64,000 bases of DNA from a bacterium (lineage in GTDB: Bacteria > Patescibacteriota > Patescibacteriia > 2-12-FULL-60-25): assembly GCA_021844065.1 (NCBI GenBank), contig JAKBUE010000006.1, positions 40,477 to 104,476 on the forward strand, given 5' to 3'. Both the position numbers and the translations under genes were made by a program. Every line of letters begins with the position of its first letter. The first letter of the stretch is position 1. Below are positions 38,107-40,182 of the stretch, piece by piece. Below the pieces are notes generated by a model. The model did no database searches. It saw only the letters and a program-made list of their open reading frames with translations, and was not told the origin of the DNA.

Positions 38107-38964
38107 CTACTGGACCGAGAAATAGAGGTCGTATCTGCCCGGAGGTGTGAAGTGCTGGATCGTACCCAGTACTCCGTTGGTCTGCCCGTTCTGCATGCTG
38201 CCCGCTTGGCTTCCGTCGTGGTAGACGTATGCTTCGCCCGAACAGCTGTCAGGCTCAAGACCGCAGCTCAAGGTACCGGCGATGAAACCATCAGTCGTGT
38301 TGGGATGCAGCCCTGCCGTGAACTGGACGTAACCGACGTTCTCCAGGTTCCCGAGCGGGCACAGCACGTAGTCGAGAAGATTGGAGGGCGCGATGCACTT
38401 GGTGTTCGCGGCGCCGATCAACGGCGAGCTCCAATAGTTCTCGATGCTCTGGCCAGAAGGCACGATGCCCCCAGACAACCCGACGTACGCGAGCGGCTGA
38501 GACTGGTGATCCAGCTTGTAGCAAATCCACCAGCCGTTCTGGGGCACGATTCCGCAAGGCGGCAAGAGGCCCGTATCGACTGGAGCATCCGTCGCCGCTT
38601 CTCCGGCTTCGTGCACGTCCTGCGCCACGTCTTCTGCGACATCGATTGGAGCATCAGTAGCGTCAGCTTCGGGAGAGGCTTCCGCTTCAGATACTACGTC
38701 TTCCGCGGCTGCATCAGCCTCTGTCGCGACGTCCTGCGCCACGTCTTCTGCGACATCGATTGGAGCATCAGTAGCGTCAGCTTCGGGAGAGGCTTCGGGC
38801 AGCTTCTCATCACCAACCTCGACAGCAGCTTCCTTTCCGTCCGGCACTGCCGCGTCTCCAGGAGCCGCGTCTTCCAGCGATCCCGCTACCGAGAACTCCG
38901 CACCACCGCAACCGACCAGCGCCAGCATCAAGCCGGCGAGAACCAAAAACCTCATTCTCATCAT
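38107..38964 (-). CDS. acidic repeat lipoprotein (paralogous family member 1)
   Basis: Signal peptide and lipobox 'LALVGCGG'. Asp/Ala/Glu-rich linker carrying a duplicated 38-aa unit. Conserved Cys-containing C-terminal domain shared with 39027..39707 and 53987..54835. Confidence 0.65.
   Translation of the reverse strand: MMRMRFLVLAGLMLALVGCGGAEFSVAGSLEDAAPGDAAVPDGKEAAVEVGDEKLPEASPEADATDAPIDVAEDVAQDVATEADAAAEDVVSEAEASPEADATDAPIDVAEDVAQDVHEAGEAATDAPVDTGLLPPCGIVPQNGWWICYKLDHQSQPLAYVGLSGGIVPSGQSIENYWSSPLIGAANTKCIAPSNLLDYVLCPLGNLENVGYVQFTAGLHPNTTDGFIAGTLSCGLEPDSCSGEAYVYHDGSQAGSMQNGQTNGVLGTIQHFTPPGRYDLYFSVQ
38617..38796. repeat. 66-bp direct repeat, two copies at a 114-bp period (in-frame duplication inside the lipoprotein gene)
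   Basis: gtcctgcgccacgtcttctgcgacatcgattggagcatcagtagcgtcagcttcgggagaggcttc at 38617-38682 and again at 38731-38796. Confidence 0.85.
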
Positions 38965-39026
38965 AACCTCCCAGGTACTTGAGCGCCCCCGGCCATGTTA
39001 CCACGGCACGGGGGCGAGTTGATGGT

Positions 39027-39707
39027 TCACGGCACCACGAGAGCCATGTTGAGCGGGTTCACCGTGCTCGCCTTGAGCAGGCCGTCGTACGTCCCGTTCT
39101 TCATGGTCCCGACGACCGTGTGACCGTCGCAGGCGTAGGCCTCGCCGACCACGTGGTCGCCGTCCGTATCATTCCAGCTGAAGTAGCTGGTGATCGCGCT
39201 CGTGGGCGAACCGTCGTTGAGGCCGAAGACCGCTTCGATCGACATCCCCTGGAACGCCGGTCCGAAGTCGCACAGGACTTCCTGATCGGTCGCGTAGTCG
39301 GCGACGCAACCCGGAAACGGATTCGTCCACGCAACGTCGGGACGCGCCGCGTACGGCGGGTAGTGAACCCACGCTGCTGCGGCCAAGAAGCCATCACCAC
39401 GCGGCTGCGGCGCCACGAAGAGGATGGCCACATGGCCTTCCTCGACGTCATCGCAGAACCCCGTCGGCGCTGCGTCTTCCGCCGCATCGTCGGCAGCAGC
39501 CTCGACTCCGGCATCCTTGTCGGACGCTGCGTCGGCCTTGGCGTCGACCGCTGCGTCCTTCTCGACCGCAGCTTCCGTCTTGGCATCCGTACCGGCGTCC
39601 TCACCCTGGGGCTGATTGACCGGCTCGCCGTTGGAGGCATCGCCGCACGCTGCGGCCAGAGCGGCCAGAATCGAAAGCATCGTCACGAAAAGAATCGGCT
39701 TGCGCAT
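39027..39707 (-). CDS. acidic lipoprotein (paralogous family member 2)
   Basis: 'MRKPILFVTMLSILAALAAACGD' signal and lipobox; D/A/E/K-rich linker; C-terminal domain alignable with member 1 ('YACDGHTVVGTMKNG' vs 'YVYHDGSQAGSMQNG'). Confidence 0.6.
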   Translation of the reverse strand: MRKPILFVTMLSILAALAAACGDASNGEPVNQPQGEDAGTDAKTEAAVEKDAAVDAKADAASDKDAGVEAAADDAAEDAAPTGFCDDVEEGHVAILFVAPQPRGDGFLAAAAWVHYPPYAARPDVAWTNPFPGCVADYATDQEVLCDFGPAFQGMSIEAVFGLNDGSPTSAITSYFSWNDTDGDHVVGEAYACDGHTVVGTMKNGTYDGLLKASTVNPLNMALVVP

Positions 39708-40182
39708 GGCAACCTCTCTCTTGCTTGAGAAACGAACAGACGTTACCCACCTTGGATAACGAGACATAACACCATAAATTACACAAAATGTCAACCCCTG
39801 ACCTAAATTTAGATAAAAAACTAAGAGAGCCTATTACAGCTCTCTTAAAGAAGATATTCTCCATGTTTTCACCATTTTGCCCTTTCATCCGGCCGGATTC
39901 GGCTCGTCCAGCCCTTTGACGAAAGAGATACGGCGACGTCGTGCCTCTTGCCTTACGCGTCGTTCCAGCTCACGCCGGTTGAGGGTTGTGGCCAAGCCAC
40001 CACCCAGCTCGATGCTCATCGCGAACACCTCGCCCTCGAACCTCATATTGGGACGTGCGCCCAAAATGTTCGCTGCAGTGTAAACACCGTTCTTGAAATA
40101 GACCACGATCGTCAGCTGCGTCATCCGGACCTCCGCACGAAAAAGAACCGTGGGTATATTAACCCAGCTTCACGACTTACTG

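Follow-up and report, generated by a model that had tools for sequence, protein, structure and literature searches.

The window, a 64,000-nucleotide stretch of a Patescibacteria genome (contig JAKBUE010000006.1, positions 40,477 to 104,476), carries two adjacent genes, here called A and B, whose products are paralogous candidate lipoproteins composed of a signal peptide with a lipobox, then a low-complexity linker of acidic composition and, at the C terminus, a globular domain. A third gene, C, encodes a protein of the same plan with an unrelated domain. Genes A and B form part of an array that is conserved between prfA and rpsB in related genomes and that seems to exchange alleles between close strains. 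This descriptive account (architecture, homology of A and B, taxonomy, array, linker lengths and allele exchange) is one in which we have high confidence. The explanation that we consider best overall, and favor by a modest degree, is that the products are surface binding modules that are anchored by lipid, held by spacers and subject to allele exchange; a function in binding or recognition, taken by itself, is a tentative proposal.

All three open reading frames (ORFs) are real and lie on the minus strand at the places given by the original prediction, which was made from the sequence alone. Gene A, the second of the pair, occupies 38107..38964 and encodes an A-type lipoprotein of 285 amino acids (aa); gene B, the first of the pair, occupies 39027..39707 and encodes a B-type lipoprotein of 226 aa. 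Both are recognized by the hidden Markov model (HMM) of their family (E values of 4.1e-48 and 3.9e-50, respectively). The gene B product is identical to the database protein P0010, and an exact protein look-up for A returned no record. Two starts were corrected. Judged by the N termini of homologs, gene B starts at ATG 39707 (MRKPILF...) and does not reach to TTG 39794. Gene C (53987..54820; 277 aa) most likely starts at ATG 54820, not at the previously listed GTG 54835, since GGAGG is located 6 nucleotides (nt) upstream and the homologs begin with MNR(T/K).

The lipoprotein architecture claimed for the three proteins was borne out for each of them by a lipobox rule and by composition, and no other ORF in the window has a composition of this type. 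The rule asks for K or R within the first 7 residues, an uncharged hydrophobic stretch, the pattern [LIVMFWSTAG](2)-[LIVMFYSTAGCQ]-[AGS]-C and a Cys at position 15 to 35; it is of the PROSITE PS00013/PS51257 type. It was passed by A (signal peptide 38908..38964; lipobox ALVGC, Cys19), by B (39645..39707; LAAAC, Cys21) and by C (54752..54820; atypical lipobox VWQGC, Cys23 counted from ATG 54820). The linkers that follow are 59 to 109 aa long. That of A (38581..38907) is Asp/Ala/Glu-rich, with 109 aa and a net charge of -31, and includes two identical copies of a 68-nt direct repeat (38615-38682 and 38729-38796; spacing, 114 nt). The B linker (39468..39644) is rich in Ala, Asp and Glu, with 59 aa and a net charge of -13. 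The C linker (54425..54751) is again Asp/Ala/Glu-rich, with 109 aa and a net charge of -34, and three degenerate 48-nt units are present at 54422-54565. The C-terminal domains were measured at about 145 to 157 aa rather than the roughly 120 aa first estimated: 157 aa with 6 Cys in A (38110..38580; predicted all-beta), 146 aa with 4 Cys in B (39030..39467; alignments A2, A4 and A5) and 145 aa with 4 Cys in C (53990..54424; predicted alpha+beta).

Sequence comparison indicates that A and B are paralogs. A BLASTP alignment of the two gave an E value of 7e-5 (27% identity over 90 aa), comparisons across the two types between lineages gave 1.4e-8 at best, and hhalign matched the profile of the A orthologs to that of the B orthologs over 103 columns (probability, 90%; E = 1.6e-6). 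In the joint alignment, three Cys, one Trp, one Pro and several Gly columns are invariant. The conserved positions of the family, which in A-domain numbering are C12, W53-x-x-P56, G-C65, C77, G118 and G130, are found in both A and B.

Gene C had been placed in the same paralogous family, with a shared architecture and conserved C-terminal Cys, Gly, Tyr and Trp positions. Such a family of three is rejected: the C-terminal regions of A and B align above chance, but that of C does not, and C is without their domain. BLASTP matches between C and A or B were confined to the low-complexity linkers, hhalign detected no relation of the C profile to the A and B profiles (probability, 0.2% and 0.1%), and the A/B HMM built from alignment A5 found no match in the C reading frame even at E ≤ 10. 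When the window was translated in six frames, the A/B HMM picked only A and B and the C HMM picked only C. The AlphaFold2 models also differ in class, that of A being all-beta with 10 to 11 strands (pLDDT 59, pTM 0.62) and that of C being alpha+beta (pLDDT 66, pTM 0.52). For these reasons, we conclude that C is not a paralog of A and B; it represents a second, unrelated Patescibacteria family built on the same plan, with a domain that is equally uncharacterized.

The A/B family is larger than a rapid search suggests. A word-indexed protein search returned only 2 relatives for A and 4 for B, whereas a complete search with the HMM across 1.84 billion cluster representatives returned 49 proteins with E ≤ 1e-3 (34 with E ≤ 1e-10), from which 2 spurious repeat proteins were discounted, leaving about 47 clusters. 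In every real match the domain is located at the extreme C terminus, and the protein usually ends in ..NLxFxVP. The majority of the matches have a lipobox followed by a low-complexity region. All members with a named source are labeled "Patescibacteria group" or "Candidatus Uhrbacteria," the latter being placed within the Parcubacteria group, and the window genome belongs to the Patescibacteria and is related to Candidatus Uhrbacteria. No relatives were found in metagenome contigs scanned with alignments A1 and A2 or in viral contigs scanned with alignments A1 and A3. Sequence searches of Pfam, NCBIfam and PDB with single proteins, all 44 aligned members or a profile gave no match to the domain, the best scores being far below the cut-offs.

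Linker composition varies across the family: it is Asp/Ala/Glu-rich in the relatives of the window and Gly/Ser/Thr-rich in many others, and in several relatives the linker is replaced or extended by Cys-rich modules (CxxCxxxC...DC..DGCE). In the A-type relatives P0047, P0032, P0037, P0054, P0058 and P0039, up to about 350 aa of Cys-rich repeats lie between the lipobox and the domain; these repeat modules matched no Pfam family. Since its composition is not conserved among relatives, the linker probably serves as a spacer rather than as a specific metal-binding element.

In the window, the gene order is prfA, a 79-aa ORF, B, A, rpsB and tsf. The array was found in seven loci from six lineages (the window, L001, L004, L022, L023, L024 and L025); the PrfA proteins of the six other loci, one of which comes from an NCBI Uhrbacteria metagenome-assembled genome (MAG), are 68-90% identical to that of the window. 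Applied to these loci, the family HMM revealed a fixed pattern, in which prfA is followed by always one B-type gene, then by one to three A-types and then by rpsB-tsf. There is one A-type in the window, L001 and L004, two in L022, L023 and L024, and three in L025. A distance tree divides the proteins without exception into a B-type clade and an A-type clade. In BLAST, each protein scores higher with even its poorest same-type counterpart from another genome (44-79 bits) than with its best cross-type match (22-40 bits). From the separate clades and the consistently higher same-type scores, the A/B split appears to be older than these lineages, and the two types are anciently diverged subtypes. 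The additional A copies arose afterwards by tandem duplication, for the most part inside one lineage; those of L022 and L023 are common to both. The subtypes also differ in format. B-types have a linker of 32-60 aa (n = 14) and mostly 4 Cys in the domain, whereas A-types have a linker of mostly 53-152 aa (up to 356 aa in one Cys-rich relative) and mostly 6 Cys.

The B and A genes are likely to form a bicistronic unit bounded by hairpins. They are separated by 62 nt, and GGGAGG is present upstream of the ATG of A. The upstream end of the unit is marked by a minus-strand terminator-like hairpin with a T-run (39821..39848) between the 79-aa ORF and B. A weak promoter-like site, TTGACA-17 nt-TGTTAT, is located upstream of B (39766..39794, minus strand); it was read by eye and was not flagged by the consensus scan. 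Just past the stop codon of A, an 11-bp G+C-rich hairpin with a U-rich tract (38058..38084, minus strand) was recognized from the sequence and RNA fold, though not flagged by the terminator scan, and likely ends the B-A transcript. No Rfam element, riboswitch or other, was found near the genes except tRNAs. The 79-aa ORF (39885..40124, minus strand) between prfA and B is 99% identical in L001 and 75% identical in L004 and is absent further out; it matched no family and is followed by the terminator-like hairpin.

As had been predicted, all three lipoprotein genes lie in GC-rich patches (A, 0.605; B, 0.656; C, 0.588; window, 0.544). The elevation is explained by linker codons that begin with G (GC content at first codon positions, 0.80-0.87) and by a high GC content at third codon positions (GC3) in the domain-coding parts, which is 0.78-0.84 there and 0.58-0.69 in neighbor genes. 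Raised GC was found in the array genes of all lineages examined, and in three of them GC3 is equally high in rpsB and tsf. Because the elevation is shared by all lineages examined and the synteny is conserved, it is best read as reflecting codon usage, perhaps that of highly expressed genes, rather than foreign origin.

Proteins A and B evolve faster than their neighbors. Across lineages, their domains are 31-48% identical, compared to 68-80% for PrfA, RpsB and Tsf. The comparison between close strains is even more pointed: of the 151 differences between the window and the near-identical strain locus L001 in 9.9 kb, 123 fall in A and B (94 in B, or 13.8 per 100 nt, and 29 in A), and none falls in the 3.8 kb of rpsB, tsf and the two following genes. 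The differences cover all of B, including the signal peptide and the linker, and the substitution spectrum (45 transitions, 39 transversions) has no adenine bias. According to the Nei-Gojobori method, synonymous divergence (dS) is 0.36 and nonsynonymous divergence (dN) is 0.078 in B (dN/dS, 0.22); in A, the values are 0.10 and 0.014 (dN/dS, 0.13). The window allele is also present in L005, and the other allele is present in one NCBI MAG and two SRA assemblies, which are mutually identical; an assembly artifact is unlikely because both alleles were thus seen in independent assemblies. Since the excess divergence is mostly synonymous and dN/dS is low, it points to the import of a diverged allele by homologous recombination under purifying selection, not to pervasive positive selection or hypermutation. 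Allele replacement of this kind is as expected for exposed surface proteins. Gene C, with 4 differences in 834 nt from its counterpart in the near-identical genome L018, fewer than its neighbors, is not a hot spot. The description of the three genes as rapidly evolving therefore fits A and B, provided that it is understood as allele exchange with purifying selection (dN/dS, 0.1-0.3), and does not fit C.

Our best guess for A and B is a binding module with a lipid anchor and a spacer that keeps it off the membrane. Once the protein is exported, its lipobox Cys would be acylated and its signal peptide cleaved off, which would fix the protein in the outer leaflet of the cell membrane. The linker, taken to be disordered, would serve as a flexible spacer, the composition of which could drift freely and which could expand by repeats, and it would carry a disulfide-stabilized beta-sandwich across the cell wall or past it. 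In that position, the domain might bind an external ligand, for example, a component of a host-cell or environmental surface. Protein B would be positioned nearer to the membrane and A further out, and the two might form a complex. Exposure to recognition by phages or hosts would favor the swapping of whole alleles by recombination, while purifying selection would keep the fold. The high GC3, which is like that of rpsB and tsf in sister lineages, would suggest strong expression. As regards the surface or host-interaction role first proposed for the three proteins, surface exposure is a plausible inference.

Several points weigh against this picture. The ideas of binding, adhesion and a heteromer come from architecture, gene order and population pattern only, and no conserved neighbor gene points to a pathway. 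The lipobox call depends on one pattern rule. The strain comparison comprises two alleles with flanks and a third without flanks, and high GC3 could have causes other than the level of expression. A more far-reaching version, which we regard as improbable, is that B and A build an abundant surface complex of two tiers that is peculiar to Uhrbacteria-like Patescibacteria, serving in host recognition or as a phage receptor, with allele swapping between co-occurring strains reflecting frequency-dependent selection. If this were true, the prfA-rpsB array would be a specificity locus for episymbiosis.

Many of the same observations could be accommodated if A and B had a structural role in the envelope, as abundant tethers that link the membrane to peptidoglycan or an S-layer or that set the envelope spacing. 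The fixed slot beside highly expressed translation genes, the high GC3, the two subtypes with their characteristic linker lengths and the conservation of B-A pairing across lineages would all suit such a role, and tether length is known to matter in other lipoproteins (bioRxiv 10.1101/2021.01.05.425367). However, strain-level allele replacement is more typical of exposed, recognized surfaces than of internal parts, and both the A-type copy number and the A-type linker length (53 to >150 aa) vary widely. We therefore rate a structural role as unlikely and prefer the exposed binding module.

Inhibition of an extracellular enzyme or toxin, or immunity to it, was considered mainly for C and possibly for A and B, by analogy to lipoproteins of the BLIP, BamE or OsmE kind. 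The C family comprises seven relatives from the protein search and nine loci in GTDB genomes, one genome having two copies, and all named relatives are Patescibacteria or Uhrbacteria. Their linkers are acidic, Gly/Ser/Ala-rich or short. The fold assignment of C is tentative: the structural matches span only about 55 residues of the model (pLDDT 66), and a Foldseek search with this model gave no significant hit (best E = 0.73). Furthermore, C matched no family in Pfam (SmpA_OmlA and BLIP included) or NCBIfam and no sequence in the PDB, no internal repeat was detected in its domain, and its surroundings hold no conserved gene for a toxin or enzyme partner. We consider an inhibitor or immunity role improbable, and somewhat less likely than a structural one.

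According to the original prediction, the acidic spacers of one family comprising A, B and C might bind Ca2+, which would fit the calcium transporters of the window. All three linkers are indeed strongly acidic. The window also contains, at 15658..19234, an Na/Ca exchanger (15658..16608, plus strand; Na_Ca_ex, E = 4e-60) and an adjoining P-type cation ATPase (16613..19234, plus strand; 873 aa), and in L025 and L007, too, a cation ATPase is encoded at a distance of no more than about 5 kb. Against this, C is not homologous to A and B, and acidity is not a family trait, because many A/B relatives and some C-family members have non-acidic linkers (Gly/Ser/Thr-rich or Cys-rich). In addition, the two transporter genes are about 20 kb away from A and B, absent from most related loci and not consistently linked in them. 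Since linker acidity is not conserved and the transporters are distant and inconsistently linked, Ca2+ binding by the linkers lacks specific support in the sequences. As an account of the three genes, we consider it very improbable.

It is equally improbable, in our view, that the proteins are not lipoproteins at all and are instead secreted via signal peptidase I or held by an uncleaved signal anchor, the Cys being coincidental. The C family offers some ground for this: its lipobox is atypical, and five of the seven homologs fail the strict rule, four because of W, N or Q at -3/-2 and one (P0007) because its sequence starts at the Cys. Lipidation of C is accordingly less certain than that of A and B. 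However, in nearly every full-length protein of the A/B and C families, the hydrophobic core is followed directly by a Gly or Ala and then by a Cys. The strict rule is passed by 28 of 50 A/B-family sequences, and the failures include many N-terminal fragments or near misses.

The least probable explanation, to which we assign next to no weight, is that A and B are of foreign origin and were acquired recently, or that they are acted on by a diversity-generating retroelement (DGR), a type of element common in Patescibacteria. It would explain the GC patches, with GC and GC3 above the window mean, and the hypervariability of the locus between strains. However, the genes occupy the same array slot in lineages whose PrfA proteins are only 68-76% identical and are therefore taken as vertically inherited, their GC is raised in all lineages (with GC3 like that of rpsB and tsf in some), and no relatives were found on viral contigs. 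A DGR variable protein in particular was rejected on account of the unbiased substitutions across the whole of B, the high dS and the lack of a template repeat or second copy of A/B DNA in the window; a genome-wide search for a reverse transcriptase was not made.

Gene C had been noted to lie next to a TrmB-family regulator gene, but a regulatory link is not supported. A 10-bp terminator-like hairpin (53944..53968, minus strand) lies between C and the TrmB gene, which is located downstream and has its own promoter-like sites, consistent with a separate transcription unit. Moreover, a TrmB ortholog adjoins a C-family gene in only 2 of the 13 loci examined (L009 and L018); a more distant TrmB-family gene is found about 1 kb away in L007 and L008. 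A TrmB-regulated operon that includes C was rejected on these grounds. Directly upstream of C are a tRNA-Leu(GAG) gene (54948..55034, minus strand) and then a terminator-like hairpin, and C therefore has its own transcription start. The promoter-like sites upstream of the TrmB gene are overlapped by an imperfect, AT-rich palindrome, TTGAATATAGTTTCACTAAAGAATTCAA (53898..53925, minus strand), which may be an autoregulatory operator of this gene. In L009, from another Patescibacteria MAG, the gene at 9017..10600, near the C-family locus, codes for a TROVE/Ro60-like protein that has a vWA domain.

Other features of the window were recorded. Between tsf and a thymidine kinase gene (34080..36380, minus strand) lie the genes of two proteins without a Pfam match, the longest ORFs of which give about 387 and 329 aa (360 and 319 aa in L001); at least the larger of them has counterparts in most related loci and diverges fast (29-74% identity). 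The minus-strand gene at 30698..33295 encodes an 865-aa protein with the Pfam domain MVP_shoulder (major vault protein shoulder/SPFH-like; E = 2.9e-11), a GC content of 0.63 and a GC3 of 0.82, both unusually high. An 858-aa counterpart is present at the end of L001-L003; a vault-shoulder-like protein is unusual for a Patescibacterium. At 51150..52500, about 1.3 kb with a GC content of about 0.58 contains no convincing ORF and has no Rfam match at E ≤ 1; it could be an unrecognized RNA gene or a decayed gene. In this region, positions 52250-52499 have 38 differences from L018.

Most Patescibacteria have never been cultured; they are ultrasmall and are believed to spend their lives attached to other cells, and to our knowledge little has been described of the surface molecules that mediate their contacts apart from type IV pili. 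Our analysis defines two uncharacterized lipoprotein domain families, the named members of which are all Patescibacteria, and a B-A(n) array beside rpsB that is probably highly expressed. It makes A and B testable candidates for host-facing or phage-facing surface determinants, and the two could serve as strain markers in metagenomes. In the literature, we found no paper describing the A/B or C families; what turned up were general studies of lipoprotein tethers and of Saccharibacteria pili. What appears to be new is the pair of domain families, the conservation of the prfA-B-A(n)-rpsB array and the strain-level allele exchange at this array. The combination of lipid anchor, disordered tether and folded head is a well-known design, and conceptually the gain is modest as long as no function is demonstrated.

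This design is exemplified by outer-membrane lipoproteins of Escherichia coli such as RcsF, in which the length of a disordered N-terminal tether is more important than its sequence (El Rayes et al., bioRxiv 10.1101/2021.01.05.425367). Proteins A, B and C resemble the RcsF type in having a lipobox Cys, a low-complexity linker and a folded C-terminal domain; unlike it, their linkers are much longer (59-109 aa) and strongly acidic, and their domains belong to no described family. We know of no outer membrane or Lol pathway in Patescibacteria. With the C2-like calpain domain III, the clostridial collagen-binding domain/PPC, CBMs and Fn3, the A/B domain has no sequence similarity in Pfam and PDB profile searches, and its model is of low confidence; the 4 to 6 conserved Cys are a feature of A and B and not of these beta-sandwich families. 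For C, the likeness to BLIP, BamE (SmpA_OmlA) and OsmE is confined to the short aligned segment mentioned above, and no tandem repeat was detected in C. The Vlp and Vsa proteins of Mycoplasma and the surface lipoproteins of Borrelia, examples of variable lipoproteins from bacteria that lack a wall or are associated with a host, are lipid anchored and exposed, bear repeats in low-complexity regions and vary in their alleles from strain to strain, and in these respects A and B can be likened to them. In contrast to those systems, A and B have no sign of phase-variation machinery, of cassettes beyond the one to three tandem A-types or of sequence relatedness, and their variation takes the form of apparent allele replacement under purifying selection.

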